The notes beneath the pieces were generated by a model. It made no database searches. It was given only the letters and a program-made list of their open reading frames with translations, and was not told the origin of the DNA. Both the position numbers and the translations under genes were made by a program. Shown here piece after piece: positions 1,401 to 63,555 of a DNA stretch of 64,000 bases (positions are counted from its first letter, which is position 1; every line of letters starts with the position of its first letter). The DNA comes from a virus. Lineage: Duplodnaviria; Caudoviricetes. Location of the stretch: positions 1,206 to 65,205 of IMG/VR virus record IMGVR_UViG_3300023210_000001; one strand, 5' to 3'.

Positions 1401-1462
1401 GAGGGAAGAACCTTTCCTCCCTCTCATAAAAACAAGTATAGAGGAAATCTGAGAAGAGTCAA
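1401..1462 (-). promoter_or_regulatory. repeated promoter-hairpin cassette 1
   Basis: TTGACT-16bp-TATACT followed by hairpin GAGGGAGGAA-AGG-TTCTTCCCTC. Confidence 0.85.
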
Positions 1463-1493
1463 CCCTATTTCTGATATTTCTCGAAAGTTATTT

Positions 1494-2231
1494 TCAGCGT
1501 GATTCCGCTGAATTCAACTCCTGGCACAGGGTGCCAACGCTGCCAGATGCCGCCGTCTTCCCATTCCTGAAAACCCATCCCTCCCTCAAAACGATACTCG
1601 CCGGTTCTCCCCCTCGCTTCGGCTTCGCCTCTTCCACCCTCGGATCGTGGACAAGCCCATCCCAACTTCCGACCCTTCTGAATTCTGGTCGCTCTTTGCC
1701 TGTGAACTTGTTCGGTTTGCTGTGATCTGGAACCCAACCGCTTCCGAATGATTCAGAACCTTTGCTTTCTGGAGATCCTGACGAGTCATACAAACGGACA
1801 ATCTCTTCCTCTTCCATCCCGAGTTGCACCTGTAGCCATTTGTCCGAGACATCGTGGTCGTCTTTTAGAGTCCGAATAATATCAGCCATCGCCATGATGT
1901 AATGCGTTCCCCGGGCACGATTGTGAGTGATCGTCGCCGAGATCTGCTCCGGCACACTAACCTTCGGCAACATTACCACCGGAACCATCTCGCCAGTGTG
2001 TGCAGCAATCCGAGGATCTGACGATGCCAACCAGCGATGATAACCATCGACGATCTCGTTGTTTTCCCGGATGACAATTGGCTGAGTCCATCCGCAGGTC
2101 AGTATCGAAGCCACGAGAAGTTCCATCTCTCTCGGAGCAACCTTGTTCGGGTTGTACCCGTTCGGGTTCAGTTCGAAACGGTTGACCCATCGGACGCTAC
2201 TTACTGGCTGCGATTCGTGATTTTTCAGCAT
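1494..2231 (-). CDS. ParB/sulfiredoxin-like protein (IbrB-like) with a C-terminal extension
   Basis: PVSSVRWV, PNGYNPNKVAPREMELL..SI..GWTQPIV, IVDGYHRW, TITHNRARGTH. Confidence 0.85.
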   Translation of the reverse strand: MLKNHESQPVSSVRWVNRFELNPNGYNPNKVAPREMELLVASILTCGWTQPIVIRENNEIVDGYHRWLASSDPRIAAHTGEMVPVVMLPKVSVPEQISATITHNRARGTHYIMAMADIIRTLKDDHDVSDKWLQVQLGMEEEEIVRLYDSSGSPESKGSESFGSGWVPDHSKPNKFTGKERPEFRRVGSWDGLVHDPRVEEAKPKRGGEPASIVLREGWVFRNGKTAASGSVGTLCQELNSAESR

Positions 2232-3390
2232 AGTACCTTTCGCTGCAAAGAAAGAACTCTCTGCTATTCGGGTCAACCGGACCCATCACCGCTTTCCTCT
2301 TCTTGAAGTCGCCCCGAAAAGCGAGCATGACGAGAAATTTCCACGATAAGCCGCTCACCGGATGCGGAACAGAAAGGATGGGATCTCTTGTTTTGTTGTG
2401 GTGCCTCTTGATCCAGGACCGCATCAACTCGGCGACCTCTGTCCGTTCTGACGGCCCCCATTTGCTTAGTATCGACACCGCAAACTCTTCCCAGGTAACG
2501 CCCTGCGGCTTTTCTGGAACTTCTCCGTAGGCATACAGTTTAGTACGACCATACATCGCCGCCGTCCCCGCACCTGGCACCCTCGACTGCATTTTGTCCC
2601 AGATGTCAGGCCAGCATTGTTTGTACTGCCACAAACCCCGCATCGGCTCGGCTCCGTATGGCGGGGCACACCGTTGTTGGCTCGGCTTGATCCCTGCACG
2701 ATCCATGACATCGTATGCAACATTGTAATCCCAGTCGAACCTTTTGGGAGCGGTCCACACATCCTCCGTCGTCCAGTCATAAATCGGGTAGACCTTGTAT
2801 TGATTGATTTCGGCATCAATTATGAACGCATTTTCTCGGTTGAGCGAATTCAGCATGACCCGCTGACGCATGAGGCTTTCATCTGCCCTGATCCCCATGA
2901 CGATGCCAACGCTTCCCCATGTACTCGGAGGAAATAAAATCCCGTGCATCTCTGGTATCGGTAGCCTTTCAGAGATCACATCCGAATCGTAATCAGGGAT
3001 CTTCGTGATCGCTTCTGGCGGCAGCGGCCTGACCCACTTGTCTTCGTCTTCGACTCCCCACGGATACCACACGGGACTCGCTGTGGAGCAAGCGTTCAAA
3101 TGTACCACCGGCAAACAGAGCCACTTCAAATCGACCATCGGATTTTTAGATACCCGCCGCACATAATTCTCGGTGTCATAAGGGATCGCTTCTTCGTCGT
3201 AAAAGTAGCACGGGACTCGATCAATTCCACGCTCTTGAGCGACCTCTAGCACGATGTTCAATACCGCCGTGCTGTCTTTTCCGCCGGAGAACATGACAAC
3301 GATATGATCGAGCAACTCGTATGCTCTGCGAACTCGATCGAGTGCGAGAGAATATACATCTTTGTTGATCGTTTGCTTTTCGCCGAGCAT
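2197..3390 (-). CDS. PAPS-reductase-like PP-loop protein (IbrA/DUF3440-like)
   Basis: FSGGKDS PP-loop, DEEAI, GIRADES..R, YPIYDWTTEDVW. Confidence 0.88.
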   Translation of the reverse strand: MLGEKQTINKDVYSLALDRVRRAYELLDHIVVMFSGGKDSTAVLNIVLEVAQERGIDRVPCYFYDEEAIPYDTENYVRRVSKNPMVDLKWLCLPVVHLNACSTASPVWYPWGVEDEDKWVRPLPPEAITKIPDYDSDVISERLPIPEMHGILFPPSTWGSVGIVMGIRADESLMRQRVMLNSLNRENAFIIDAEINQYKVYPIYDWTTEDVWTAPKRFDWDYNVAYDVMDRAGIKPSQQRCAPPYGAEPMRGLWQYKQCWPDIWDKMQSRVPGAGTAAMYGRTKLYAYGEVPEKPQGVTWEEFAVSILSKWGPSERTEVAELMRSWIKRHHNKTRDPILSVPHPVSGLSWKFLVMLAFRGDFKKRKAVMGPVDPNSREFFLCSERYYAEKSRIAASK

Positions 3391-4085
3391 TATTTTCCGT
3401 GATTGATGTAGGTCTTGTTGAGCATTGCATGATCTTCGTCAGTCGGTCCGGTGTCCGAGTCCGGGTGATATGCGATCACATCCATCATGTCCGCCGAAGT
3501 TCGAAATGAGTGCAACTCCTGCTCCTCCAACATGAACATCGCCCCTGTCATAAGCGGCTTTACCCATCCATCGTTGAAGTTGCTTTTTTCTTGCCACGCT
3601 TCGCCGACGCCCTTGATTACTAGCCCCATCCGGATCGATGGATGCGTGTGTTGAGTTTGAATCACGCCGCTCGGGAAATGCAGATAATTTAGAACTGGAT
3701 CGCCTTTTCGTGGCATCGGAACGAGTATGCTATCCGAGCATCCGTCGATATAGGACAACCGACCACGCTGTTCAACCTGTCCCATCATTGGAATCCCCTG
3801 GTATCCCAGCCGTTCTACTGTCCACATCCGAAAGGGGCGTTCCGCTGGCTTGCAAGACACGACAGAAATCTCGCCCGTAAATGCGAAGTAGTTCCCGGAG
3901 AGCAGCGACCACATCTGCCCGTTGGCAGCGATGGTACACTCCCCACCGATGACATATCCGAAAATCGTGGAACACCGCTGAGACAACTCGCTGATCGGTT
4001 GCTCGATCCATGTTGCGATTGTGGGGTACATCGAATCGGTGGCATCGATAGAATCCAAGTGCCGAGGATTGTCGATCAATTTCAT
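3390..4085 (-). CDS. cupin-fold protein
   Basis: LNYLHFP..QTQHTHPSIRMG..G.G and E.HSFRT metal-binding cupin motifs. Confidence 0.7.
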   Translation of the reverse strand: MKLIDNPRHLDSIDATDSMYPTIATWIEQPISELSQRCSTIFGYVIGGECTIAANGQMWSLLSGNYFAFTGEISVVSCKPAERPFRMWTVERLGYQGIPMMGQVEQRGRLSYIDGCSDSILVPMPRKGDPVLNYLHFPSGVIQTQHTHPSIRMGLVIKGVGEAWQEKSNFNDGWVKPLMTGAMFMLEEQELHSFRTSADMMDVIAYHPDSDTGPTDEDHAMLNKTYINHGK

Positions 4086-4089
4086 TTCT

Positions 4090-4776
4090 TCACCCCTTCT
4101 CGATTGAATCCATTTTTTCTCGAACAAGTTTTTCTAGCGACTGCGATACCGTCAGGAGTCCGTCGAGATCCTGTAAGCGTTTCAATGATTTCATGATATA
4201 CGAGCGTCCGGCTCTGGTAACTGTAAAAGCCAGCGAAACATATTCTTCGTCTTCCAGGGTGGATTCGGAAGACTTATCCGCAGAGCCGCCGCTTGCGTCC
4301 TCGATAATCGCCGACGAAAGGAAATCCGAAGCATCTTTGCCGTCTCCTTCCGTAACCATAAGAGACCCGATCTCATAATCAGCGAACCCAGTCGTCGCCA
4401 AGTCAAAAGAATCCGCCTCCAATCCTCGGAACAGATCACCGAGAATCTGGAAATCCCAGGTCGCCAGTTCTGCCGTCTTGTTGTCGGCGATCGCTCTGGC
4501 GATAGCGTTGACATTCGGTTCCTTGACGACGACCGCTGCGATCTTCGTCCAACCGAGACCCTTCGCCGCTTCGAGTCTCCCGTTGCCGATCCGAACGATC
4601 ATCCCTTCTTCCTGGACGACGATCGGTTGATGTTGTCCGAAGGTTTCGAGCGAGGTTTGAATCGCTTCCAGGTTTCGACGGTTATGTGTTCTTGCGTTCG
4701 TCGGATCGAGAGTCAGAGTCGAGACATCAACGAGTAACGGCTCCAACTGCTTCAAGACATTATGCTCCGTCGTCAT
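4090..4776 (-). CDS. ParB N-terminal domain protein
   Basis: LDPTNARTH, SLETFGQHQPIVV, GNGRLEAAKGLGW, IADNKTAELATWD. Confidence 0.85.
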   Translation of the reverse strand: MTTEHNVLKQLEPLLVDVSTLTLDPTNARTHNRRNLEAIQTSLETFGQHQPIVVQEEGMIVRIGNGRLEAAKGLGWTKIAAVVVKEPNVNAIARAIADNKTAELATWDFQILGDLFRGLEADSFDLATTGFADYEIGSLMVTEGDGKDASDFLSSAIIEDASGGSADKSSESTLEDEEYVSLAFTVTRAGRSYIMKSLKRLQDLDGLLTVSQSLEKLVREKMDSIEKG

Positions 4777-6467: not shown

Positions 6468-7859
6468 CTAACCTTTCAACCAGTCAAGCCCGGTCCCACG
6501 ATCTGCGATGTCTTTCAGAATGAACCGGACGCCTTTTTCGAGTTCTTCGATGTTTTCCATGTTCTCATAAAGTCTCGACTTGTGATCCGATTCCGGGATC
6601 GTCGACATCCCGAACCCGAGTTGACTCTTATCGGGTCCGGCTCCGGCAAGGATCCTCATGATGTATCCGCTGGTACAATAGTTCAAAACGAAAGACCGAA
6701 CGCCTTTCTCGTCGAACTCTTTTTTCTTGGCGACCGTCCGCTCGAACGATCGAGGATTCCGTTCTGTTGCTTCGGCTGCACCGTCGGTCAACCAGACGAC
6801 ATCGGCGTTCTTCATTCCTTCTTCTTCGAGGATCTCCGTCGCCGCCGTCAGGGCCACGAGGAACCCGGTTCCGCCTCTCGGTTGGATCTTCAACAGTCTT
6901 TGAAGATCCCCGAGGTCGCACACTCCTCGATCGTTCGAGCGGACGATTCGTTTCCTGTCCACCGAGGAGGTAAACGGTGCGACGACGAATCGGCGACCCG
7001 ACTCTCGGCAAGATTCCATCAACCCGAAAGCCGTCGCAAGGGCCAGATCGCATCGATTGAAATCTTCGATTCGTCTTCGCATTGATCCCGAGGTGTCCAA
7101 CATTACCAGAACAGGGCCGAGACCGTCTCCGCCGTCTTCTTCGCCGGAAGTGATCTCCAGCGTTCCGTCGGCGAGATCCTGAGCGATCATCTCCGGCGTT
7201 CTGGTCACGAGGTATCCGGTGTCGGCGAGTCCTATGTCGTCGCCCAGGTCGACCGTCGACGCCGTTGTCGAGGAGTCGATCGAGTCGTCGAGCAGATCGC
7301 TCTGAATCTTCTCGACTCGTCCGAAGGCTTTGAACAGTTCTACCAATCTCGGATTCTCTCGGATCGTCGCCGCCAGAGCGATTCTTTTCTGAGACAATGC
7401 GGAGACCTCGCCGACGACCGAATCGTCTTCATCTTTCTTCGTCAGGTCTTCGATCTTCTTCGTAAAATCAGAGATCACGGTCAGGTCGCCGCTGGCGGAT
7501 TCGACCGCCGCTGAAATCCGTCCGTCGGTCAACTGTAATTCGAGGATCTCGTACAGCGACAACATTCCCATCGCCGCCGTCGACGGGTTGAGGACCGTCA
7601 TCGCTCGAATGGTTTCGAACGATGGGGTCTCGACGATCTGCAAGATCGCTCTGGTCAACGGATCATTTCCCGGAAGAATCTCCGGACGAACCGTCGAGTA
7701 GAGAAGAACGAACAAATCTTTCGGAGTCTCTTCGATTCCCGGAGGGAAAGGCGAAGCGTTACCGAAACAGCCTACCTTGATTCCGGCTCCGGTCAGATAT
7801 TCCTCGACCAGTCCGAACATGATCGTCGAAGCGTTGGTGGTTCTCGTCAGTCTCGACAT
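6468..7859 (-). CDS. vWA domain protein (ViaA/CoxE-like)
   Basis: MIDAS motif LDTSGSM, GGT.F, VVWLTDG. Confidence 0.88.
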   Translation of the reverse strand: MSRLTRTTNASTIMFGLVEEYLTGAGIKVGCFGNASPFPPGIEETPKDLFVLLYSTVRPEILPGNDPLTRAILQIVETPSFETIRAMTVLNPSTAAMGMLSLYEILELQLTDGRISAAVESASGDLTVISDFTKKIEDLTKKDEDDSVVGEVSALSQKRIALAATIRENPRLVELFKAFGRVEKIQSDLLDDSIDSSTTASTVDLGDDIGLADTGYLVTRTPEMIAQDLADGTLEITSGEEDGGDGLGPVLVMLDTSGSMRRRIEDFNRCDLALATAFGLMESCRESGRRFVVAPFTSSVDRKRIVRSNDRGVCDLGDLQRLLKIQPRGGTGFLVALTAATEILEEEGMKNADVVWLTDGAAEATERNPRSFERTVAKKKEFDEKGVRSFVLNYCTSGYIMRILAGAGPDKSQLGFGMSTIPESDHKSRLYENMENIEELEKGVRFILKDIADRGTGLDWLKG

Positions 7860-8206
7860 TATTCGCCTCCCGTCATGTCGGCGATCAGAAAGGTCTCCGA
7901 GGAGACAGCGATCTTGTCGGCGTCGGTTGCGATGTCCACGGTCAACGAAACCTTGTCGGCGATCAGGAGATCGCCGGGTTGAGGATCGTTGTAGTAGTAG
8001 ACATCCTCGGGATCCGCAGCGTTGACGATCTTCACCGCCACGAAACGAGAGTAGTCAAAAGAATCGCAGTGCGGGAGTCGGTAGATCGAGGCAACTTCGG
8101 TCGGGAAGACGGCGTTGCGGTTTGCGATCAGGATTTCAAGAACGGCGATTTCTTCCGCCGTCTTCTCGATCTTGTTCGTCGGGGTCTCGGAAAGGCGATT
8201 CGACAT
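7859..8206 (-). CDS. small cassette protein between the AAA and vWA genes
   Basis: ATG (MSNRL) follows cassette 2; its stop overlaps the vWA start. Confidence 0.7.
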   Translation of the reverse strand: MSNRLSETPTNKIEKTAEEIAVLEILIANRNAVFPTEVASIYRLPHCDSFDYSRFVAVKIVNAADPEDVYYYNDPQPGDLLIADKVSLTVDIATDADKIAVSSETFLIADMTGGE

Positions 8207-8235
8207 TGTTCCTTCTTTCGTTTCGTTTTCTCTTC

Positions 8236-8297
8236 GAGGGAAGAACCTTTCCTCCCTCTCATAAAAACAAGTATAGGGCAAATCTGAGAAGAGTCAA
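8236..8297 (-). promoter_or_regulatory. repeated promoter-hairpin cassette 2
   Basis: TTGACT-16-TATACT plus hairpin. Confidence 0.85.
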
Positions 8298-8326
8298 CCC
8301 TATTTTCGAACTTTCTCCGAAAGTAT

Positions 8327-9433
8327 TTATCCCCTCCTCGATTGTCGTCCGAGAACGATCCTGGCGGCACTTTCGGAGATCTCTGCGAGTCTCGCTCGCT
8401 CTTCTCCGTTCAGTCGACAGAAGAACTTCGGTTGGCGGATCGTGCTGCTGAGGTTGAGCAGATTCGTCAACTGGTCGTCGTCGAAATCTGCGAGAAGTTT
8501 CATCCCGGTGATCTCGACCAGTTCGTTGAACTTCATTTTCGCCAACGATCTCGCCTCGTCGCAAACCTTGTCGACGATATTGTGGACATCTTCGATCTGA
8601 GACGGAGAAGACCAGAAGACGAATCGAGCGACTCGGAGATCCTCGCTCCTGATCTCGTCGTGTCCGACGAGCCAAGCCTGAGCCTGAGCCAGAGAGAGCC
8701 GAAGACCCATCGTCTTCATCCGTTTCCGTTGGTCGATCGAGATGTCGAGTTCGTCCATTTCACGGAAGAGCCGAAGAGCGGTCTCTTTCGCTTCCTCGGA
8801 GATCGGCACAGCGGCGATCTCTCGCCTTGCGGACACGATGTCCGACCGGGTGATCGTCTCGACGATCGGGTCCGGCTGAGTCGACCAGAGAGCCGTCGCC
8901 TTGCCGCTCTCCGTCACGATGTCTTTGACCAGTATTCGCATCTGGAGTCGGGAGTAAAACGCCGCATCGGCTTTGTCCGACGGGAGTTCGTTGCTCGCCG
9001 TCAACATCGACAACAGCGGAAGATCTCGGACGACTCCGTTCTCGGAGAACTGACGATCCGCCAACGGTTCGAGGAGAGCGGCTCTCGCTCCCTTCGTACC
9101 CTTGAACACTTCATCGACGAAGGCGATGTCGGCGTCCAGGAAAGTGTTCGGAGCCTCGTGGATCCTGATTCCCGATTCGAGGAATCGCTTCGGGTTGATA
9201 TCCCCGAGCAGATCCTTGTCGGTCGAGTATTGGTTGAGTTGACGGCTGAATTTCTCCATGTCGAGGTGCGACATGAAGTCTTTTATCACGGCTGACTTCG
9301 CACAACCGGGTTTCCCGATTGCGAGTAGGTCGGCTCCGGTGAGGATGCTGAGGACAATCGCATCGACCAGTTCGTCCCGCTCGACCCATCGAGCCTTGAC
9401 GCTTTCGGCGATCGCTTCCAGTTTCGCTTTCAT
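8327..9433 (-). CDS. MoxR/RavA-family AAA+ ATPase
   Basis: Walker A GKPGCAKS, AFVDEVFK, TASNELP, AFYSRL; start re-called at MKAKL after a hairpin and RBS. Confidence 0.9.
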   Translation of the reverse strand: MKAKLEAIAESVKARWVERDELVDAIVLSILTGADLLAIGKPGCAKSAVIKDFMSHLDMEKFSRQLNQYSTDKDLLGDINPKRFLESGIRIHEAPNTFLDADIAFVDEVFKGTKGARAALLEPLADRQFSENGVVRDLPLLSMLTASNELPSDKADAAFYSRLQMRILVKDIVTESGKATALWSTQPDPIVETITRSDIVSARREIAAVPISEEAKETALRLFREMDELDISIDQRKRMKTMGLRLSLAQAQAWLVGHDEIRSEDLRVARFVFWSSPSQIEDVHNIVDKVCDEARSLAKMKFNELVEITGMKLLADFDDDQLTNLLNLSSTIRQPKFFCRLNGEERARLAEISESAARIVLGRQSRRG

Positions 9434-9494
9434 GCTTCGTTCCTTTCGTTCCTTGTTGTTGCCGGGGAGGACGGTCCTCCCCGGCTTGGGTTTT

Positions 9495-9764
9495 TTAGTT
9501 CTGGACGAAGATTGATTCTTCACCCAGACGAAAGAGTTTCACTTCGACGATCATGTCGAGGTGCAAGAACGGTCCTTCGGCGTTTTCGATCAACCAGTAA
9601 TCTTGTCCGATTTTGGCGTACTCGGTGACGACTCCGGCGACCAACACGGTTCCGATTGTCGCTTTCGGATTGTCCCTCAACTGCTCTTCGGTCATGGCGA
9701 CATACGGATAAACATTTTGATCCGGCGTTCCCGGTACACGGTAATCGGAATATTTGTTCGACAT
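9495..9764 (-). CDS. small cassette protein
   Basis: ATG (MSNKY) follows cassette 3. Confidence 0.7.
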   Translation of the reverse strand: MSNKYSDYRVPGTPDQNVYPYVAMTEEQLRDNPKATIGTVLVAGVVTEYAKIGQDYWLIENAEGPFLHLDMIVEVKLFRLGEESIFVQN

Positions 9765-9792
9765 CGTTCTCTCTTTCGTTCCGTTTCTCTTC

Positions 9793-9854
9793 GAGGGAAG
9801 AACCTTTCCTCCCTCACATAAAAACAAGTATAGGACAAATCTGAGAAGGGTCAA
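9793..9854 (-). promoter_or_regulatory. repeated promoter-hairpin cassette 3
   Basis: TTGACC-16-TATACT plus hairpin. Confidence 0.85.
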
Positions 9855-9911
9855 CCCTGTTTCTGGTATTTCTCGAAAGTTATTTTCGACCTGTTTCTTC
9901 AGATCCCCGGA

Positions 9912-10008: not shown

Positions 10009-10073
10009 GTCGGGGATCCGGCGAAACGGTCCGGGGAGAGGATCGACTCCCCTCCCCGGCTGTCGAAATCGTG

Positions 10074-11135
10074 TCATTCTCCGGCGTTCGACGCTTCCCG
10101 GTCGAGTTTCGCCAGGAACTCTTGTACGGCCTCCGAGGACGACGGGTTCGATGTCGACGACTCCTCGGTCGACTCCTCCGCCGCTTCTGTCTCCGTCTCT
10201 TCTTGGGCTTCTGAGGAGACTTCCTCCAGACTCTCGGAGACGACCTGTTCGACAAAGTTGTCGAGACGATCGAGGTCGTCCTTGATCGCCTGAACCGCCG
10301 GACCGAGCAGAGCCTCGTACGATAAGGCGAATTTCCGCAGTTCCTTCACCTCGTCGAGTCTTTTCAGACTCGCTCCTTTTTGCTTCTTCGTCGGGGAATC
10401 GAAGAACTTTTTGATCTCCTTTTGTAGCGATTCGATCTCGGCGAGCATCGAGTCGTTGAAAGCCGCCGAGACATTCGCCGTCGCTGCGTCTCCTCCGAGA
10501 ATCGGCAGAAGCATCAAGTGTCCCTGCGTCAGTCTTGAGATCACGACAGACAAACCGTCCGCCTCGGACTGAGCGATCGGATCGCTCGGTACAAAGTAGG
10601 ATCCACCGCCTCGGCGTGTCGAGAATCCGCTCCTCGACTTGCTCCATCTCGTGAGCATTCTTCGGAGATCCGCCGCTCCGAGCATCTGCGTCATTCCCGT
10701 GGATATCTCTTTTTTCAGTTCGGCTTCATTCGATCGTACCTCCCCGTCGATCAGAGCCACCCATCCTTCGTTGTCCAAACTGAACGATCTCGCCGTCCCG
10801 TCCGGATCGACGCTGACGAGTCCGTAACAAACGGAGCCGGGTTGGTCGATCTTGATCTTCCTGAACTCCCGGATCGCCCCTCCAGGACGACGACGACGAG
10901 CGTTGAAGTTCTGGATCGTTCGAGTGAACGATTTACGGATTGTCACAGGTTTCGGCAACAGTTCGTCGATCGTTGCGAGACTGATTCCTTCGCTCTTCAT
11001 AGCGTCGAAGAGCAAGTCGGATGATATCTCCGATCGTTGCGGGATCATCCACTGCACGAGCGTTCCGATCACTTTCACTCCAGCCGCTTCCGCATCGGCG
11101 ATCGACTCTTTCACCGAAGATAGATTCGTGGTCAT
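10074..11135 (-). CDS. conserved hypothetical protein (DUF6744-like), next to the AAA/vWA pair
   Basis: G.LV.W, R.GGGSYFVP, coiled-coil C-terminus; family assignment is from recall of the motif. Confidence 0.55.
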   Translation of the reverse strand: MTTNLSSVKESIADAEAAGVKVIGTLVQWMIPQRSEISSDLLFDAMKSEGISLATIDELLPKPVTIRKSFTRTIQNFNARRRRPGGAIREFRKIKIDQPGSVCYGLVSVDPDGTARSFSLDNEGWVALIDGEVRSNEAELKKEISTGMTQMLGAADLRRMLTRWSKSRSGFSTRRGGGSYFVPSDPIAQSEADGLSVVISRLTQGHLMLLPILGGDAATANVSAAFNDSMLAEIESLQKEIKKFFDSPTKKQKGASLKRLDEVKELRKFALSYEALLGPAVQAIKDDLDRLDNFVEQVVSESLEEVSSEAQEETETEAAEESTEESSTSNPSSSEAVQEFLAKLDREASNAGE

Positions 11136-49729: not shown

Positions 49730-49732
49730 GTT

Positions 49733-53863: not shown

Positions 53864-54006
53864 AACCGCCGCCTGGATTCGAACCAGGATCTTCGTCTCG
53901 TCGACAGACGAATGTTCTAGCCGTTGGCCTCCTCTTGCAGAAGAAGACTTACTAGACCCCGGTCTCCACCTGCAAGAGGAGGCCAGTCCTGTTAAACTAC
54001 AGCAGT
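53864..54006 (-). tRNA. tRNA-like RNA (Asp GTC-like) with a 68-nt D-loop insertion and an expanded anticodon arm
   Basis: Acceptor ACTGCTG/CGGCGGT, TA, D stem GTTT/GAAC, T arm CCTGG-TTCGAAT-CCAGG, anticodon arm TTCGT-CTGTCGACGAG-ACGAA; no encoded CCA. Confidence 0.65.
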
Positions 54007-54067: not shown

Positions 54068-54122
54068 GGAACAGATCCTCGGTTGTGCCTCGCTAGCGGC
54101 GTTGCCTCCGAGAATCTGTTCC
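54068..54122 (-). ncRNA. 55-nt structured RNA element, copy A
   Basis: Long stem GGAACAGATTCTCGG/CCGAGGATCTGTTCC; compensatory pair change relative to copy B. Confidence 0.6.
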
Positions 54123-54391
54123 TAGAAGACTTTGTAGTCGCCGTTCTTCTTCGAACGGATCCTCCAGGTCTGATCGCCGCACTCGACGACGATCGTTTGT
54201 ACTCCTTTTCCGTTCCAGTTCTTCGGGACTCGTTTGATTCCGAAAATCGCCGCCTTCTGAGTGCGATTCGTGATCTGGTGCATGATGTGGATCAGGGAAT
54301 CCCTGATCTTCTCCGAGGCGAATCGGAGATCCCAACTATCCACAGGTTCGAGTCGAGAGATGATCTCTTTCGCCGCTTCGATGTGATTCAT
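54122..54391 (-). CDS. small hypothetical protein flanked by two RNA hairpins
   Basis: A-rich leader before MNHIE. Confidence 0.6.
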   Translation of the reverse strand: MNHIEAAKEIISRLEPVDSWDLRFASEKIRDSLIHIMHQITNRTQKAAIFGIKRVPKNWNGKGVQTIVVECGDQTWRIRSKKNGDYKVF

Positions 54392-54416
54392 GGCTTCTTC
54401 TTTCGTTTCGTTTCTA

Positions 54417-54471
54417 GGAACAGATCCTCGGTTGTGACTCGCTAGCGTCGTTGCCTCCGAGAATCTGTTCC
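54417..54471 (-). ncRNA. 55-nt structured RNA element, copy B
   Basis: Directly follows cassette 17; two differences from copy A that preserve pairing. Confidence 0.6.
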
Positions 54472-54491
54472 TTTCCTTTCGTTTCCTCGTT

Positions 54492-54553
54492 GAGGGAAGA
54501 ACCGTTCCTCCCTCTCATAAAAACAAGTATAGAGCAAATCTGGAAAGAGTCAA
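54492..54553 (-). promoter_or_regulatory. repeated promoter-hairpin cassette 17
   Basis: TTGACT-16-TATACT plus hairpin; leads into an RNA element rather than an ATG. Confidence 0.85.
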
Positions 54554-54561
54554 CCCGTTTT

Positions 54562-54768
54562 TCAGTTTTTCAGAAGATTAAAAACTGTTTTCCGGAAAGA
54601 AACTTTGAACTCCGGGTTTGCGAAATATTCGATCATGAAAAGAACATTGTTCAACGCATCGCCGCTGAGACCGGAATCTCTCACCCCTTGAGCGAGTTTC
54701 TTGGCGGTTGTTTTTTTGTCGTTGCTCTTCTCGATGATTGCTCTGATATGTTTCGGAGTGATTTCCAT
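54562..54768 (-). CDS. small cassette protein
   Basis: MEITPK follows cassette 18. Confidence 0.65.
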   Translation of the reverse strand: MEITPKHIRAIIEKSNDKKTTAKKLAQGVRDSGLSGDALNNVLFMIEYFANPEFKVSFRKTVFNLLKN

Positions 54769-54800
54769 TTTCGTTCTCTCTTTCGTTTCGTTTTCTCTTC

Positions 54801-54862
54801 GAGGGAAGAACCTTTCCTCCCTCTCATAAAAACAAGTATAGAGCAAATCTGAGACGGGTCAA
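54801..54862 (-). promoter_or_regulatory. repeated promoter-hairpin cassette 18
   Basis: TTGACC-16-TATACT plus hairpin. Confidence 0.85.
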
Positions 54863-55086
54863 CCCTGTTTTCGAAGTTTTCTCGAAAGTTTTTCATCCGT
54901 CTCGTACAGTCGAGTCGGTTCCGACGGAGCATGATTCGATTTTTCGTCGTGATGCAAAACGATCGCCTCGTCCTGGAACTGGATCGTCCAGGCTTGGAAG
55001 TCCTCGCTCCATTCCGCTCGGAAACCGTCGAACTCGACGACTTTCGTCGGCCACACTTGTCGAACGATTCGGCTCTTCGACTTCAT
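54859..55086 (-). CDS. hypothetical protein
   Basis: ATGA overlap with the upstream gene; its 3' end runs into the promoter repeat. Confidence 0.4.
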   Translation of the reverse strand: MKSKSRIVRQVWPTKVVEFDGFRAEWSEDFQAWTIQFQDEAIVLHHDEKSNHAPSEPTRLYETDEKLSRKLRKQG

Positions 55087-56549: not shown

Positions 56550-57324
56550 TGAACCATCGCTTGAACGAGGATTTCCCGAAACAAGACATCGGAGAATAAA
56601 GACAACCCTGAAACACGCTCGCCTCGAATTTGTGATCTTCGAGGTCTTCTTTGAGAGCGGTCAGGTCGGCGATCATTTCGATGTTCCGTTGAGTGCAACG
56701 GATATCCCCGCCCATCTTCATCGAGTTCCGTTCGGTCGGCACGATCGGTCTTCGTTGAGGATCGTTGTCGAGATAATACGAATCATCTTCCCGATAACAG
56801 AGATCCACGCCGCCGAGCCACATATCTCGAACGCCCAACAACAACAACAGCGAGATCGCCGCTGTCGCCGTGGTCTTGTTCATCGGGAACTCCGACGGTC
56901 GAGTCTTTCGAAGTCTCTTCGAGCCTTTGAATATCGCCGGAACGGAGTCGGTTTTCGGCAAGACGAGATTCCTCTCCGAGATCCATTTCTCGCATTCGTC
57001 GTGCATCACGATCTGAGTTTTCGAGTTTGGTTTGTATTTGTTTTTGACGATTCTGTCGAGGAAAGAAAGATCCGAAAAGATCCAATAATCAGGCACGAAA
57101 CGATCCAGGTTCCGATGTCCTTCTTCGTTGATGGCGACGGTGACGAGTTCGGGATCGTCGAGTTGTCGATGATCGAAGTCCTTCATCGATGGTCCGGAAC
57201 CGAGAACGATTCCTCGCTGTCCCTCTTTGTCGTTTTTCATCGCCGTGACCGATTTGAAAAAAACGGAGAGGTCACGCCTTGGCGTAACCTCTCCGCTTCC
57301 GATCTTCTTAGACCGTCGAGCCAT
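56542..57324 (-). CDS. DUF115/Maf/sialyltransferase-like protein
   Basis: IVLGSGPS, VAINE, PDYWIFSD, TTATAAI.L..LLG.RD.WL.GVDL; ATG overlaps the capsid stop. Confidence 0.72.
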   Translation of the reverse strand: MARRSKKIGSGEVTPRRDLSVFFKSVTAMKNDKEGQRGIVLGSGPSMKDFDHRQLDDPELVTVAINEEGHRNLDRFVPDYWIFSDLSFLDRIVKNKYKPNSKTQIVMHDECEKWISERNLVLPKTDSVPAIFKGSKRLRKTRPSEFPMNKTTATAAISLLLLLGVRDMWLGGVDLCYREDDSYYLDNDPQRRPIVPTERNSMKMGGDIRCTQRNIEMIADLTALKEDLEDHKFEASVFQGCLYSPMSCFGKSSFKRWFNG

Positions 57325-58265
57325 TAGTTCCCGGCGTCGCTGAGACGGACGATCATGTTGTTGTTCAACACTTTGTACCCGTAGAGCAGATCGACCGAGA
57401 CGAGCCAACGGCTGTATGTGTGCTGATATGACATCATCACACGGAGACCGATTCCGTCCTTCGTCACGGAAGCCGAACGAACGCCGAACTCGCCGCCAAC
57501 CGCTTCCAGCGGACGACTGACGAATGTCAGAGCGTTACGGTGGAAGGCGATCGACTGATCGGTGAGAACCTCGGGAGTCGCTCCGTCGGTCGCTTGAGGA
57601 ACATTCTGGTCGACATACAGATTCAACCCGAAGATCGTGTTGATGTATCCCGTCCGAATCGCAGGTGGATTGATCCCGGCGGTGTTCGCCTGAATGACCT
57701 CGCCGATCTGAAGAGCCTCGTGGTAGTGGTCCGGCGACATGACGCAGTTGAGCCGTGAAACCCCTCCGGTCGCAGCGGTCGGAACCTTGTTCACCATGAA
57801 CTGCTTCTGCACTCCGGCGAAGTCCGCAAGAGAGACCTTTGCGACGGCGGTGTCGACGACGGTCGTCCCGGAACCGAGTCCGTCGGTGTTGTTGAGGAGA
57901 TCGGCGTCGATCTTCTCGGCCATCGGAATGACCGCTGGCTCCATGAACTCTTCGACCAGATTCTTGATCGAGGTGTCTTGGTCCCTGCTGGTGATCCCGA
58001 ATGCGATGTGTTGATGCTTGTTCAGGGCGACGGTGAGATCTTCCGCCTTCGGAGCCTGAATCGTCATCTGAGTGTTGTTCGTCAGCGGGTTCGCTGTGAA
58101 CATCTGCGGTGTTCGAGTGTGTACGACATCGCCCTGTTGAGCGACTTCATCTTCGAAGTCACGGTGAACGAGGTTCGCCACGACATTCGATGCCTGGAGG
58201 AGGAGGAGAGATTCTCTCGCCCAGATCTCCGGCGGGTATACTAGGTCAACGGTTGAAAAAGCCAT
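57324..58265 (-). CDS. major capsid protein (P22 gp5-like family)
   Basis: LVHRDF..E...GD.V..R.P, PA...MA.KID..L, AFHRNA.TFVSRPL, DLLYG. Confidence 0.9.
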   Translation of the reverse strand: MAFSTVDLVYPPEIWARESLLLLQASNVVANLVHRDFEDEVAQQGDVVHTRTPQMFTANPLTNNTQMTIQAPKAEDLTVALNKHQHIAFGITSRDQDTSIKNLVEEFMEPAVIPMAEKIDADLLNNTDGLGSGTTVVDTAVAKVSLADFAGVQKQFMVNKVPTAATGGVSRLNCVMSPDHYHEALQIGEVIQANTAGINPPAIRTGYINTIFGLNLYVDQNVPQATDGATPEVLTDQSIAFHRNALTFVSRPLEAVGGEFGVRSASVTKDGIGLRVMMSYQHTYSRWLVSVDLLYGYKVLNNNMIVRLSDAGN

Positions 58266-58270: not shown

Positions 58271-59065
58271 TCAACTTCCTTTGTTCTGTTCCAAATCTCT
58301 GATGATCTTCTCCCGGTTCTCTTCGTAATCTTCCCAGGACATTCCGCCCTGTTTCTGATCTCGAATTGATTCGGAGGTGAATCTCGACTTGGAATTCGGT
58401 GAACTTCCGCTACCTGCCCCGCTGCCGGATTTCGCCGGAGTCGAGAAAAGGTGCGGATTGTCTTCTTTGAAAATGCCGATGAAGTCTTTTACCGGAACGA
58501 GGTCGTCGCCGTGTAATGTTTTCACGGTTATGGCGTCGCCTATTTCTTCGTCGTTCTTGATTTGATCGTTGATGATCTTGAAGCATTGTTCGGGTCGAAC
58601 TGCCCCTGCCGCTGACAAGAGTGCTTCCGTGTTGTGCTTTCGTCGTTCCATTTGCATGGCATGGTCTTTGGATTCTGCGGCTTCTTGGAGCCGTTTGTTG
58701 TCCTCGGACATTTTGCCCATCTGCTTGTGGAGTTTGGAAAGTTCAGCACGAACTCCCGGTGGCAAGGCGTGATCGTCCTTCGCTTCGTCGATTTGTTGCT
58801 GGTTCCCCGAGGATTCCCCGGCTCCAGACGGATTGTCGTCGAGACCGTGCAACAACTTGTCGACTTGCTCAGAACTCGCAAAGCCCATTCCCTGGATGCG
58901 TTTCTCAAACTGTCCGAGAAGTTTTTTCTCCCTTGCCGCCATGATTTTATTCATCTCGGTTTCGGAAACCGTTCTCGGGGTTTCTTTGTTCGCCGCATCG
59001 TCTGCTTCGTCGTCTTCACGACAAATCACAGTCGAGTCGAAATTCATTAAAAGCGTTTTCTTCAT
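58271..59065 (-). CDS. capsid scaffolding protein
   Basis: Acidic/coiled-coil, PHLF...GSG.G motif; directly before the capsid gene. Confidence 0.8.
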   Translation of the reverse strand: MKKTLLMNFDSTVICREDDEADDAANKETPRTVSETEMNKIMAAREKKLLGQFEKRIQGMGFASSEQVDKLLHGLDDNPSGAGESSGNQQQIDEAKDDHALPPGVRAELSKLHKQMGKMSEDNKRLQEAAESKDHAMQMERRKHNTEALLSAAGAVRPEQCFKIINDQIKNDEEIGDAITVKTLHGDDLVPVKDFIGIFKEDNPHLFSTPAKSGSGAGSGSSPNSKSRFTSESIRDQKQGGMSWEDYEENREKIIRDLEQNKGS

Positions 59066-61030: not shown

Positions 61031-61416
61031 GCCCTCGTTTCTGGTTTTTCGAGAGCGAAGATCAAATGCTGAACCTCCTCCAGAATTCGTGCCGGGTTTG
61101 CGACCACATCGGCGAGTCCCTCGTTTATCATATTAGCCGATTTCAACAATTCGTCTCGACTCTTTTTCTCTGTCGAAGCCCGGTTCAGCGTGTACACCGC
61201 CAACCACTCTCGCATCAAATCTCTGTCCTGGTAATCAGAATATCTCGCTCCGAGATATGCGATCTCGCACTTGTCCAGTCGACCTTCTCGTTTGTAGTGG
61301 CGAGCGAGGGTCAACCATTTGTCTCTGTTGAGCGAGGAAACCGTTTTCAGTTCCTGGAGTAACTTCAACTCCGATGCGTTCAATCCCGCTCCGTTGAGAG
61401 TCCAGCCGAGGCTCAT
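61027..61416 (-). CDS. hypothetical protein
   Basis: ATGA overlap with the terminase stop. Confidence 0.55.
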   Translation of the reverse strand: MSLGWTLNGAGLNASELKLLQELKTVSSLNRDKWLTLARHYKREGRLDKCEIAYLGARYSDYQDRDLMREWLAVYTLNRASTEKKSRDELLKSANMINEGLADVVANPARILEEVQHLIFALEKPETRA

Positions 61417-62852
61417 ACTGTCATCCAATCTGTCATCGAAGACTGTTTCTCTCCACGGAGGGAAACCCTTTTGTACGGAAAAACACGGTCGATGATGTAA
61501 TCGGCGGTGTCGCTCATGTGACCGAGCGTCAATCCGTCGGTCGCTCTTTGATTCTTCAACTTTGAGAGGTTTTCGTCAAGTCCTTGCGACACGAGATCCC
61601 GAATCAACATTCCGCAAGAAGGATGAATGACCCACCGGACATCGCCGTTTGCGTTCCGGAGGAGAGCGTTCGCCGCTTTCAGCCGACTCGTGTGTCGTGG
61701 ATTCTTCCTCGGAACTCGTCGATGAATCTCGCCGTTGAACGCCGGGGCGATCCAGTCCTCGATCTCGTCGAAGTTCGAAACGCCAACGACGGCGGAAGCA
61801 TCGCCGTAGATGTAGATGTCCCGACCATGACGCAGACCCGCCGGACCGTAGCGGTTGATTAACTCGACGCACACTTCCTTCGTGTTCGATTTGTTGAGAC
61901 TGATCTCGTCGATAGTTGACAAGAGTCCCGTTGTACCGTGTTTGTATACCTGATGTATACTGCACGACATGGGAGAAATATTGAAATCCCAAGAAAAGTG
62001 CAAATCTGATTTTTCGTCGTAGGTCGCTTCTCGGCGAAGATTCGATTCTCGATTGAAGTTGTAATATGCCAGACCTCGACCGACATCGATGTGTTCGCCG
62101 TAGATGTACGCCTTCGCCTGATCCTCGGAGAGCGTCGTTTTGAGACTTTCGATGAACTCCTCGGGTACGCCGGGATTTTCGATGGTCGCCATTCGGATCA
62201 TCTCGTGAGTCGTTCGCCATTCCGCCTCTTTCGATTCGTCGATCGGCGGGTTTTGCCATTTCTGGTAGACGGCATCGAGTCCTTCAGGGGTGCCACATAC
62301 GAAAAACTGAGAAAGCGGTTTCCCCGAAACCGGGTCGGGCTTCGCTCGTCGCAGTCTGGAGGTGAGAGAGATGGCGAGTTCGGGGAAGTCTCGAACGGTC
62401 GTCGCCTCGTCCACGCCGACGAAAGCGAGGTTGAGACCACGGAGTCGAGCCGGGTTGTCGGCGGAACCGAAGTACAGAATCCCGCCCCAAGGGAAAGTCA
62501 GAGACATTTTCGATGGCGAATATACGCAATGATCCCAGAGCGATCCATCGCCGTCGTCGTCGTCGTTTCCGAGTTTCATCAACAGATCGTCTCGAAGGGT
62601 CGGGAGAAGCACCCGTTGAAACATCTGGTAAGTCGGCGAAACGATCAGTCCGGCGTACCCGGCCCCGTTGTAGAGTGAGAGCAAGATCGCTTTGAGGCAG
62701 AACGGTAGCGTCTTCCCGGAACCGAAGCCGCCGATCAAAGCGAGGTTCGGCGTCCAGGATCGGAGGAATCTTTTCTGTTTCTTCGTGAGAGTGATTCCGG
62801 CTCTCTGAAGTTGTTCAGCGTTGATTTGCACGCTTTGGAGTTTATCCGACAT
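61413..62852 (-). CDS. terL: terminase large subunit
   Basis: GGFGSGKT, SPTY, LRGLNL..VGVDEA, GTPEG, SWDFN, YGDAS, H.SD.ADY. Confidence 0.95.
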   Translation of the reverse strand: MSDKLQSVQINAEQLQRAGITLTKKQKRFLRSWTPNLALIGGFGSGKTLPFCLKAILLSLYNGAGYAGLIVSPTYQMFQRVLLPTLRDDLLMKLGNDDDDGDGSLWDHCVYSPSKMSLTFPWGGILYFGSADNPARLRGLNLAFVGVDEATTVRDFPELAISLTSRLRRAKPDPVSGKPLSQFFVCGTPEGLDAVYQKWQNPPIDESKEAEWRTTHEMIRMATIENPGVPEEFIESLKTTLSEDQAKAYIYGEHIDVGRGLAYYNFNRESNLRREATYDEKSDLHFSWDFNISPMSCSIHQVYKHGTTGLLSTIDEISLNKSNTKEVCVELINRYGPAGLRHGRDIYIYGDASAVVGVSNFDEIEDWIAPAFNGEIHRRVPRKNPRHTSRLKAANALLRNANGDVRWVIHPSCGMLIRDLVSQGLDENLSKLKNQRATDGLTLGHMSDTADYIIDRVFPYKRVSLRGEKQSSMTDWMTV

Positions 62853-63108
62853 CCTTGATCTTTGCGACCATCGAGACGATCTCGGCTCCTTCGATCAGAA
62901 GGAGTGCGATTCTTGCGACATCTTCTTCGAACCATTCGACCGATTCCGTGGATATTTCGATAGTCGTTTCCCCGATGACTACGGTGAAGCCTTCAACGAC
63001 AGTCGAGTCGTATCTTCCGAAGGTCGCTTCTGTGTCGTCCCGAACTTCTCGGAGATCGGCGATCACTCGTTCGCCCTCTCTGCTGTCGAGCAGTTGTTCG
63101 ATGGTCAT
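62842..63108 (-). CDS. small cassette protein overlapping the terL start
   Basis: MTIEQLL follows cassette 19. Confidence 0.65.
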   Translation of the reverse strand: MTIEQLLDSREGERVIADLREVRDDTEATFGRYDSTVVEGFTVVIGETTIEISTESVEWFEEDVARIALLLIEGAEIVSMVAKIKDVG

Positions 63109-63137
63109 TCGTTCCTTCTTTCGTTCCGTTTCTCTCC

Positions 63138-63199
63138 GAGGGAAGAACCTTTCCTCCCTCTCATAAAAACAAGTATAGAGCAAATCTGGAACGAATCAA
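63138..63199 (-). promoter_or_regulatory. repeated promoter-hairpin cassette 19
   Basis: TTGATT-16-TATACT plus hairpin. Confidence 0.8.
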
Positions 63200-63268
63200 C
63201 CCTATTTCGGAAGTTTCTCGAAAGTTTTTTTCGACCTGTTTCTTCAGATCCCCGGAGGCCCGCCGGGA

Positions 63269-63463
63269 TTAGATCAAACCTTTGAACAACTCTCCCGGAT
63301 CAGCGGACAAGTCCAGGATCTGGACTCGCATTTCCGTGCAGCCGTGGCCACGGAGGATCTCAATAGTTGCTTTCGCTTCCTGTGAACTCTTGCAGAGCGT
63401 GTGGAGGGGCTGCTCCTCATTAGGATTCTTCGGGGACAGTCCCCAAATGATAAACTCTTTCAT
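63269..63463 (-). CDS. small cassette protein
   Basis: MKEFIIWG follows cassette 20. Confidence 0.65.
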   Translation of the reverse strand: MKEFIIWGLSPKNPNEEQPLHTLCKSSQEAKATIEILRGHGCTEMRVQILDLSADPGELFKGLI

Positions 63464-63493
63464 TTCGTTCCTTCTTTCGTTCCGTTTCCTCGT

Positions 63494-63555
63494 CGGGGAA
63501 GAACCTTTCCTCCCTCTCATAAAAACAAGTATAGGACAAATCTGAGACGGATCAA
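63494..63555 (-). promoter_or_regulatory. repeated promoter-hairpin cassette 20
   Basis: TTGATC-16-TATACT plus hairpin. Confidence 0.8.

Follow-up and report, generated by a model that had tools for sequence, protein, structure and literature searches.

A dispersed promoter-hairpin-leader cassette in an uncultured marine virus: likely expression unit and candidate recombination linker

INTRODUCTION

Why would a virus carry nearly the same promoter, hairpin, and leader in front of one small gene after another? The question is raised by a 64,000-nucleotide (nt) stretch of DNA, here called the window, which comprises bases 1206-65205 of the 65,205-base-pair (bp) record of an uncultured marine virus (IMG/VR record IMGVR_UViG_3300023210_000001; Caudoviricetes). 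A first-pass annotation made from the letters of the window had listed 20 near-identical minus-strand elements of this kind. It had proposed a plug-in system for expression and recombination, comparable to the promoter early stem-loop (PeSL) cassettes of T4-type phages. We analyzed the copies, the genes behind them, and closely related metagenome contigs. The answer that we regard as fairly probable is that the elements are standardized expression cassettes for the host RNA polymerase (RNAP), which double as linkers for homologous recombination and are PeSL-like in function.

RESULTS

Copies of the cassette and their orientation

The ends of the 65,205-bp record form a direct repeat of 82 bp, and the assembly is therefore circular or circularly permuted. 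The G+C content of the window is 53.5%. We searched the window with the hairpin pattern GAGGGAGGAA-NNN-TTCTTCCCTC, allowing up to three mismatches, and compared the result with 100 shuffles. Of the 36 rows returned, 17 repeated sites as read from the plus strand, leaving 19 sites, all on the minus strand; of these, 17 were exact, and the sites at 24129 and 63494 had two mismatches at the base of the stem. The shuffle expectation was 0.00. These sites correspond exactly to 19 of the 20 positions in the first-pass annotation. At the remaining position, the twelfth copy (near 49733; c49765 in Table 1), the promoter was present and the hairpin was absent, confirming the deletion described for this copy.

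When the whole record was searched, TATACTTGTTT was detected 22 times on the minus strand and never on the plus strand. The record contains 22 cassette copies, 20 in the window and two in the 1.2 kilobases (kb) beyond it, which corresponds to a density of approximately one per 3 kb. An nhmmer profile built from the 22 copies matched all of them with E ≤ 5e-31, exclusively on the minus strand, and the next match had an E value of 0.2. The score distribution was bimodal (E ≤ 5e-31 versus ≥ 0.2), and no decayed copies were found. All 22 copies lie on the same strand as every gene with a family match (the family search was conducted with minus-strand open reading frames [ORFs], and every family match was on this strand).

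Promoter, leader hairpin, and start codon

Alignment of the 22 copies revealed a unit of approximately 135 bp, which extends from an A-rich stretch and a TTTC-N2-3-GAAA box to an ATG; the size of 62 bp given previously is therefore too small. The box, which had been noted upstream of most copies, has its usual form in 19 of 22 copies and a variant form in the other three. It is followed by the -35 element TTGAC(C/T) (TTGAT(C/T) or TTGTTC in eight copies), a 16-bp spacer, TATACT, the invariant TGTTT(T/A)(T/C)AT, and a 10-bp stem with the loop AGG. From the -10 element through the hairpin, an identical 38-mer is common to 17 of the 22 copies. The leader consists almost entirely of A and G and has a GAAGGAAC-like 3' end directly before the ATG, its GAAGGAA-type purine stretch serving as the ribosome-binding site. 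First ORFs were called from this ATG, which is located 62 to 72 nt past the start of the -10 element in 20 of 22 copies (36 nt in c49765 and 140 nt in c54531, the seventeenth copy). The cassette thus has the layout of an expression unit, as had been suggested: a sigma-70-type promoter, a sense-strand hairpin immediately past the predicted start, then an unstructured purine leader that includes the ribosome-binding site, and an ATG whose distance is constant.

Of the 12 sigma-70 consensus positions, the promoter matches 10 in 14 copies and 9 in the other eight. In the whole record, 18 sites on both strands reach at least 10 of 12, and 14 of these are cassettes. Judged by this match, TTGAC(C/T)-16-TATACT is likely to be a good host-type (sigma-70-like) promoter.

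The hairpin has a 10-bp stem in 19 copies and an 8-bp stem in two, and is absent from one. As sense RNA, it folds at -15 kcal/mol, and the remaining leader is predicted to be unpaired. One G·U pair in the stem becomes an A·C mismatch on the opposite strand (-15.0 kcal/mol for the sense versus -11.1 kcal/mol for the antisense RNA). The difference between the strands suggests that the structure is relevant to the sense transcript and not to the DNA. The hairpin lacks a U-tract and is thus not a canonical intrinsic terminator. Since the leader is almost free of pyrimidines, it has nothing to pair with; its only pyrimidine-rich stretch is the 3' arm of the hairpin, which is paired with the 5' arm. 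Rfam at the gathering threshold gave no matches in the window, and ARAGORN detected no tRNAs there.

The hairpin begins 11 nt after TATACT, and initiation 6 to 9 nt after the -10 element would leave 3 to 5 unpaired nt at the 5' end. Base pairing or a stem-loop at the 5' terminus (ompA/papA type) is known to protect mRNA from 5'-end-dependent decay, as Emory, Bouvet and Belasco and also Bouvet and Belasco reportedly found in 1992. According to the portion of the source used here, Bacillus RppH requires at least two unpaired 5' nucleotides (PMC3997798).

Two copies deviate from the common layout. In c54531, the first-pass annotation had seen a leader that ends in an RNA element in place of an ATG. 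This was not borne out: the leader contains an inserted 55-nt hairpin (window 54400-54470), after which its 3' half and the ATG of an 89-amino-acid (aa) ORF are reached at 54391. The 120-nt stretch comprising the 5' hairpin and the insert folds at -44.8 kcal/mol (z -5.6). The other deviating copy, c49765, looks like the product of a deletion between the 5' arm of the hairpin and the similar ribosome-binding stretch. It still has a promoter, a ribosome-binding site, and an ORF, showing that the hairpin is dispensable for the basic layout.

Small first ORFs behind the cassettes

The 22 first ORFs have lengths of 64 to 214 aa. Among the 20 in the window, none matched Pfam at E < 0.01 (two sub-threshold matches had values of 0.011 and 0.036), and three matched PHROGs, with unknown function except for a weak head-scaffold match of the c48464 ORF (E 0.0059). 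No Pfam family was found for the two first ORFs beyond the window, nor for the three novel ORFs of contigs L040, L042, and L047 (see below). The description of the cargo as unrelated ORFs of 65 to 215 aa thus holds for most of them. It needs correction for the range, for the first ORFs of c19946 and c11529, which are paralogues with 60% identity, and for two other first ORFs that belong to one PHROG. The proposed role as host-takeover or anti-defence cargo is a guess that the family searches did not substantiate.

Two look-alikes in the ESM Atlas may serve as leads only: the copy at record 656-790 has a first ORF resembling a DUF2958-like protein (score 0.86), and the c19518 ORF resembles a DUF932-like protein (0.92). 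Neither of these ORFs has a Pfam match. Six of the 22 first ORFs start with MSN, and the repeat may therefore reach a few codons into the ORF.

Differences between close relatives at the cassettes

Eight metagenome contigs (L040 to L047) with a total of 20 hairpins were found by a hairpin scan. They are mostly 97 to 99% identical to the window. Exchange of cargo at cassette borders, which the first-pass annotation had anticipated among relatives, was detected in several forms: (i) replacement of an ORF, (ii) insertion of a unit of ORF, terminator, and cassette, and (iii) a module swap, with breakpoints in or at cassettes.

At c19946, contig L040 is identical to the window over the inverted-repeat element (see below), the promoter, the hairpin, and the leader. 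This identity ends at the ATG, where an unrelated 124-aa ORF replaces the 86-aa ORF of the window, and identity is regained at the terminator hairpin before c19518. Contig L047 contains a 618-bp insertion, which consists of a 150-aa ORF, a GC terminator hairpin, and a full cassette, and is joined at the leader/ATG of c8275. Such a product (or its reverse) is what one would expect from unequal crossing-over between direct repeats. In the same contig, the first ORF of c8275 is only 66% identical in protein, and a 150-bp patch with 72% identity lies inside the first ORF of c11529, amid approximately 5 kb with approximately 100% identity. In L042, the counterpart of c63177, behind which the window has the 88-aa ORF and terL, is followed by a new 178-aa ORF, a terminator hairpin, an inverted-repeat element, and the first part of a further cassette. 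None of the novel ORFs is present in the 65-kb record, yet they have the same leader and terminator, showing that cassette-flanked extra cargo exists in the population, regardless of the molecule that carries it.

A larger exchange was found in L041. The ParB/cupin/PAPS-reductase-like/ParB block of the window (approximately 1513-4350) is swapped for a block (L041:2143-5172) encoding a 266-aa ORF, QueC (E 2.6e-58), a radical-SAM protein, and GTP cyclohydrolase I (E 1.6e-74), which are genes of the 7-deazaguanine-pathway type. One breakpoint lies inside the c1440 promoter spacer. This exchange, the only one with a readable function, is between DNA-modification-type modules and would fit an arms race with restriction. 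The tandem arrays of this contig are shorter than those of the window. Smaller differences were detected in L046, at the start of which the upstream half of c52659 is of another type, and in L044, in which the first ORF of c19518 has 90.7% protein identity versus 99.5% nucleotide identity nearby. Contigs L040 and L044 carry different alleles at one locus.

Of ten breakpoints counted by hand, six are located within or at cassettes, and a seventh at an adjoining terminator hairpin; the cassettes account for 2,246 of 28,789 compared bases (7.8%). A binomial estimate by hand gave approximately 3e-5 for six of ten, a value to be read with the breakpoints not being independent and the contigs having been selected for containing hairpins. 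When L041 was left out, mismatches amounted to 306 of 4,745 bases in first ORFs, 373 of 15,158 in other DNA, and 47 of 2,111 in cassettes. Orthologous cassettes differ in patches, with 16 differences between L040 and c19518 and 16 between L042 and c63177. Of 128 such differences, 117 are states seen in other copies, which is a weak test because the variable columns have few states. This patchiness fits gene conversion among the copies. Logan contigs contained joints of the "goes back" and "skips" types, the sides of which extend only 21 to 36 letters inside the repeats; they were not counted as circles or deletions.

Cassettes at the head of gene blocks

The positions of cassettes, terminator-like hairpins, and genes with family matches are given in Table 1. 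The cassette-free stretches at 24.8-48.4 kb and 54.9-63.1 kb correspond to structural blocks, and one cassette heads each block: c63177 the 88-aa ORF and terL, c48464 the tail side, c19518 the replication genes, and c9832 and c8275 the MoxR and vWA genes. Nine cassettes are packed between the head and tail genes, at 48.4-54.9 kb. The cassette is not confined to small genes and is, by position, a promoter candidate for essentially all transcription units. Since it is located upstream of the terL/head, tail, and replication blocks, it does not form a special early class by sequence, in contrast to what had been assumed. The assignment to siphoviruses was likewise not confirmed, its basis being a weak tail-tube match and a 1087-aa gene in the tape-measure position.

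Contigs from RNA libraries (two runs with the phage) cover, among others, the scaffold and capsid genes, parts of 53.6-54.8 kb, and 53566-53997, with DNA carry-over being possible. One of them spans the c54840 cargo across the next promoter, although contigs cannot prove a transcript.

Table 1. Cassettes, GC-rich hairpins, and genes with family matches (window coordinates)
Feature	Position	Strand	Remarks
c63533	63461-63590	-	variant upstream box, 8-bp stem; first ORF 63269-63463, 64 aa
c63177	63108-63241	-	first ORF 62842-63108, 88 aa, overlapping terL start
c54840	54766-54893	-	first ORF 54562-54768, 68 aa
c54531 (copy 17)	54466-54595	-	loop ACG, variant upstream box, 55-nt hairpin in leader; ORF 54122-54391, 89 aa
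c53503	53432-53563	-	first ORF 53097-53432, 111 aa
c52659	52584-52723	-	short leader; first ORF 52277-52597, 106 aa
c52034	51971-52098	-	long inverted-repeat element upstream; first ORF 51615-51968, 117 aa
c50671	50599-50736	-	inverted-repeat element upstream; first ORF 50379-50600, 73 aa
c49765	49704-49829	-	promoter kept, hairpin and most of leader gone; first ORF 49436-49729, 97 aa
c49013	48941-49076	-	10-bp tandem array upstream; first ORF 48567-48941, 124 aa
c48464	48387-48524	-	GC hairpin 48528-48550 upstream; first ORF 47760-48395, 211 aa; then cassette-free block to ~24.8 kb
c24728	24653-24791	-	first ORF 24402-24656, 84 aa
c24168	24092-24232	-	8-bp stem; GC hairpin 24369-24396 and inverted-repeat element upstream; first ORF 23831-24100, 89 aa
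c23337	23260-23400	-	GC hairpin 23392-23419 upstream; first ORF 22975-23268, 97 aa
c19946	19869-20010	-	inverted-repeat element upstream; first ORF 19614-19874, 86 aa
c19518	19441-19581	-	GC hairpin 19573-19600 upstream; first ORF 18802-19446, 214 aa; then SNF2/primase/MCM-like block
c11529	11455-11584	-	-35 TTGTTC, variant upstream box; first ORF 11200-11457, 85 aa; then DUF6744 gene
c9832	9756-9896	-	GC hairpin 10032-10059 and inverted-repeat element upstream; first ORF 9495-9764, 89 aa; then MoxR-type AAA (8327-9523)
c8275	8199-8330	-	between MoxR AAA and vWA genes; first ORF 7859-8206, 115 aa
c1440	1370-1505	-	first ORF 1134-1370, 78 aa
GC-rich terminator-like hairpin	52235-52262	-	after c52659 cargo; one of 7 window copies, 2 more beyond window
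GC hairpin copy	50315-50342		
GC hairpin copy	48528-48550		variant
GC hairpin copy	24369-24396		
GC hairpin copy	23392-23419		
GC hairpin copy	19573-19600		
GC hairpin copy	10032-10059		
terL	61413-62852	-	family match
scaffold	58271-59065	-	family match
P22-type coat	57324-58265	-	family match
minor capsid protein 2	39603-40865	-	family match
tail tube	37469-38260	-	weak match
SNF2 helicase	16848-18272	-	family match
primase	13904-15664	-	family match
MCM-like ATPase	12109-13443	-	family match
DUF6744	10074-11216	-	family match
MoxR AAA	8327-9523	-	family match
vWA	6468-7859	-	family match
ParB	4090-4776	-	family match
PAPS-reductase-like	2197-3390	-	family match

Terminator-like hairpins and other repeats near the cassettes

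The GC-rich hairpin is located upstream of seven of the 22 cassettes, after the stop codon of the preceding cargo, and its tails are partly T-rich. It adjoins the cassette in four cases and is separated from it by a long inverted-repeat element in three. One GC hairpin scores as terminator-like. A promoter-less, leader-like fragment fused to this hairpin was found twice (window 50315-50370 and record approximately 265-320), in both cases ahead of an ORF with its own ribosome-binding site. The fused fragments look like footprints of past cassette recombination.

The inverted-repeat element is present in six copies of approximately 100 to 130 bp, the left arms of which start on the minus strand at window positions 89, 9996, 20110, 24332, 50855, and 52198. 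It has arms of approximately 25 bp and a conserved loop of approximately 45 nt. Each copy lies directly upstream of a cassette (cG1130, c9832, c19946, c24168, c50671, and c52034). The element could be a strong terminator, a small RNA, or an insert resembling a miniature inverted-repeat transposable element (MITE).

Tandem arrays flank several cassettes and the terL-proximal end. Their units are 49 bp (window 107-838, 52878-53037, and 63884-64000) or 10 bp (window 840-1070, 49107-49420, 50950-51099, and 63628-63852). They may be packaging or replication sites.

Distribution of the cassette and lineage of the virus

Exact-pattern scans of the virus collection, from which the window's own record was possibly excluded, gave no matches for the core, the promoter, or the GC terminator hairpin. 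A scan of 185,579 prokaryote species, each represented by a single genome, likewise gave no exact match to the hairpin. This result gives no support for a mimic of a host CRISPR repeat, and no clue to the host.

The large terminase TerL belongs to Terminase_6N and had relatives at 31 loci of the virus collection, the six best of which (L009 to L014) are 62 to 75% identical. The TerL relatives have tandem repeats of their own, different from those of the window, in the same place upstream of terL. One of them, L013 (TerL 62%), contains two copies of a different 62-nt promoter-like unit upstream of terL (573-634 and 1315-1376). This unit comprises a -10-like GATA(T/G)AAT followed by a ribosome-binding site and a start, and each copy precedes a small ORF. 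The TerL lineage may use repeated promoter units of its own.

With MoxR and SNF2 as queries, only relatives with 25 to 32% identity were detected, and the TerL search in the genome collection yielded only two fragments of metagenome-assembled genomes, with 28% identity. The phage collection contained no nucleotide match and only protein matches of at most 30%. The best cultured TerL match (30%) is a Synechococcus siphovirus (cyanosiphovirus), and the best capsid match (30%) is an actinophage. There is a faint hint of a cyanobacterial host. The ORFs at 15532-16338 and 16340-16870 match Pfam families named for cyanophage Pam3 gp34 and gp33 (E 5e-9 and 2e-7).

DISCUSSION

A cassette for expression and exchange

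According to the model that we favor, the phage would place a standard cassette ahead of its transcription units. The sigma-70-like promoter would be read by host RNAP, and the TTTC..GAAA box could bind a factor or act as an UP-like element. The transcript would start a few nt before the 10-bp stem-loop, which may act as a 5'-terminal mRNA stabilizer and would also keep the sole pyrimidine-rich leader stretch paired. The unstructured purine leader with its ribosome-binding site would load ribosomes on the first, usually small, ORF, and many units would close with a GC-rich terminator-like hairpin. Because 22 near-identical direct copies of approximately 135 bp are present in 65 kb, they would also be substrates for homologous recombination. 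Recombination between copies would delete, insert, or replace the intervening ORFs and would patch the cassettes, the outcome being a plug-in system for small accessory genes. The function as an expression cassette is likely; that as a recombination linker is supported by the population data, with a caveat concerning assembly.

Several observations weigh against this model. On the expression side, the promoter was judged by consensus only. The RNA-library data are contigs, which cannot show starts, strand, or level. The 3 to 5 unpaired 5' nt expected from the predicted start are perhaps too many for full protection. In addition, the hairpin is near-invariant: 19 of 21 stems are identical, two have an unpaired stem base, and there are no compensatory changes, so covariation gives no support for an RNA structure.

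On the recombination side, the second breakpoint of the L041 swap lies inside a ParB gene. In L043, window 26075-26401, which is the C-terminal part of the 322-aa ORF at 26042-27010, is replaced without involvement of a cassette, between flanks that are approximately 98.5 to 98.9% identical to the window. No family was found for this ORF; the pattern would be typical of a receptor-binding tip. Over all contigs, the mismatch density is highest in DNA outside cassettes and first ORFs (2,595 of 21,561), which is due to the L041 module. A Pfam scan of 60 window proteins revealed no integrase or recombinase family, and blastn-short detected no cassette in the available DNA of L009 to L014. Finally, the contigs are short-read metagenome assemblies, in which 135-bp repeats favor chimeric joins, and one sample prefix is common to six of the eight.

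A more far-reaching version is possible but doubtful. The whole transcription program, including the packaging, head, tail, and replication blocks, might be run from this one module. The module might also be a dedicated exchange system, with a factor of the phage that recognizes the hairpin and/or the TTTC..GAAA box and promotes recombination from cassette to cassette or governs all units together. It would be an integron-like, promoter-carrying plug-in system with an origin independent of T4-type PeSLs; the population data do show accessory genes being turned over, alternative DNA-modification modules among them.

Alternative explanations

The cassettes could instead be regulatory repeats only, i.e., co-regulated promoters that selection keeps alike via a factor acting on the box and/or the hairpin, with the swaps representing ordinary mosaicism in intergenic DNA and the cassettes having no special role in recombination. 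Such a factor would suit the position inferred for the conserved upstream box, at which activators or the alpha subunit bind, and the fact that the core from the -10 element to the hairpin is the most invariant part (the 38-mer of 17 of 22 copies). Ordinary mosaicism would suit the L043 swap and the left end of the L041 swap, which are away from cassettes. However, the leader/ATG is the exact point at which homology is lost in L040, L042, and L047, and the L047 insertion is one complete repeat-bounded unit. Six of ten breakpoints within 7.8% of the compared DNA, and cassette differences of which 117 of 128 are states of other copies (the weak test mentioned above), also argue against mosaicism of the ordinary kind. 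We consider this explanation unlikely.

It is improbable that the hairpin, instead of stabilizing passively, has an active control function and is bound or cut by a factor of the phage or the host. It would then be, for example, a nut-like antitermination site or a target for an endoribonuclease, or it could switch translation, with its 3' arm, once released, pairing with the ribosome-binding site. The invariance of the sequence of stem and loop, and not just of the structure, would be expected of such a site, and the sense-specific G·U pair is consistent with it. So is the resemblance of the 5' arm to the downstream ribosome-binding region, between which c49765 appears to be deleted. Yet c49765 keeps its promoter, ribosome-binding site, and ORF without a hairpin, and Rfam detected no match in the window. 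Furthermore, families of RNA-binding proteins, nucleases, or antiterminators were not found among the 60 window proteins compared with Pfam, a weak argument given that most small ORFs have no family.

The differences between contigs might also be artefacts, with short-read assemblers having joined unrelated pieces at the 135-bp repeats while the true gene order is fixed. Contigs L042, L044, and L046 indeed have a terminus within a cassette, breaks in the Logan contigs coincide with the repeats and show the short joint sides described above, and the shared sample prefix of six of the eight contigs fits as well. But L040 and L047 regain collinear unique flanks on both sides, for which two matched mis-joins would be needed in each contig, and joins cannot account for divergent patches inside first ORFs. 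Novel ORFs that are missing from the 65-kb record and nevertheless have the same leader and terminator are a further argument, and an artefact thus appears highly improbable.

It is hardly credible that the cassette is a selfish MITE-like repeat copied 22 times, or a decoy RNA that mimics a host CRISPR repeat: the copies are many, near-identical, and never degenerate, and solitary-repeat RNA anti-CRISPRs are known in phages (PMC10651486, as far as the part of it used here goes), but all 22 have one orientation and an ATG at a fixed distance, no terminal inverted repeats or target-site duplication were seen by eye in the alignment, the hairpin belongs to an mRNA leader and is not free-standing, and it has no exact match in the 185,579 prokaryote species (one genome each).

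Comparison with known systems

In the sections of Arbiol et al. (2010; PMC2839356) on which we draw, T4-type PeSLs are described as composite motifs of approximately 100 bp, in which a stem-loop is combined with a strong sigma-70-like promoter and an AT-rich region upstream. The stem-loop terminates or attenuates transcription, and a ribosome-binding site and a start codon are located at the 3' end of the motif (PMC2839356, same sections). PeSLs sit in hyperplastic regions rich in homologue-less ORFs, at indel borders between phi1 and RB49 (PMC2839356, same sections). They form mini-circles, and their promoter and terminator activity has been shown (same sections; Comeau et al. 2014, PMC4122927, also in part).

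Measured against these sections, the comparison made in the first-pass annotation was apt. Promoter, stem-loop, ribosome-binding site with ATG, orphan small ORFs, and motif-bounded indels are all present here. The likeness includes (i) a sigma-70-like promoter and a stem-loop over approximately 100 bp, with a ribosome-binding site and start codon at the end, (ii) small homologue-less ORFs in plastic regions, with motif-bounded indels or replacements between close relatives, and (iii) one PeSL subclass that, by the same partial account, also has a stem-loop downstream of the -10 element. There are also differences. The carrier is not a T4-type phage (P22-type coat, Terminase_6N TerL, 65 kb), and the copies are far more alike, as the 38-mer illustrates. 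The stem-loop is located in the transcribed leader and lacks a U-tract, the terminator-like role being taken by a separate GC hairpin. In addition to plastic regions, the cassette heads the terL/head, tail, and replication blocks. Whereas mini-circles and activity were shown for PeSLs, the cassette is known from its sequence. We classify it as working like PeSLs but not as a member of the T4 PeSL family by descent.

In T7-type phages, a near-identical promoter for the phage polymerase is reused genome-wide, and the major capsid mRNA has a 5' stem-loop followed by a strong ribosome-binding site. Their promoters depend on a phage-encoded RNA polymerase, whereas the promoter here is of the host sigma-70 type and no such polymerase was found. 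The start-associated sequences of cluster K mycobacteriophages are said to be short motifs located where translation begins and to lack a promoter or hairpin. In the part of the source used, they are described as short, conserved, and repeated upstream of many start codons in a siphovirus (PMC3203893).

Among archaeal viruses, the excerpts used here report a PeSL-like motif with an inverted repeat and a proposed role in shuffling in the myovirus HGTV-1 (PMC3950731), and promoter-bearing intergenic repeats of 29 to 58 bp, with positions conserved among relatives, in the halovirus HF2 (PMC8707807). These systems share with the cassette repeated conserved motifs with promoters ahead of many ORFs. 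They differ, according to the same excerpts, in their archaeal TATA-type promoters, in being myoviruses, and in lacking a standard leader or 5' hairpin. Lambdoid morons, as portrayed in the sections of PMC2839356 cited above, are similarly single accessory genes with their own promoter and terminator between functional modules. They have no shared flanks and are thought to move by illegitimate recombination (PMC2839356, same sections), whereas here every unit shares one cassette. Integron gene cassettes do not match: integrase or recombinase families were lacking in the Pfam scan of 60 proteins, and the repeats are direct promoter units, not imperfect attC palindromes. We found no description of such cassettes for a siphovirus-like or a marine non-T4 phage in a literature search that did not cover most subscription journals.

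Significance

The principle of promoter-stem-loop shuffling has already been published for T4-type phages; what is striking here is the density and uniformity of the copies. If our model is correct, promoter-stem-loop shuffling cassettes would not be peculiar to large T4-type myoviruses and would have arisen convergently, in an extreme form that serves essential as well as accessory blocks, in a small unrelated marine phage. The cassette would then provide a concrete mechanism for the fast turnover of small accessory genes in environmental phage populations, and its sequence would be a handle with which to fish the accessory gene pool of this lineage from metagenomes. The natural, standardized combination of promoter, 5' hairpin, and unstructured leader is also testable as an expression part.

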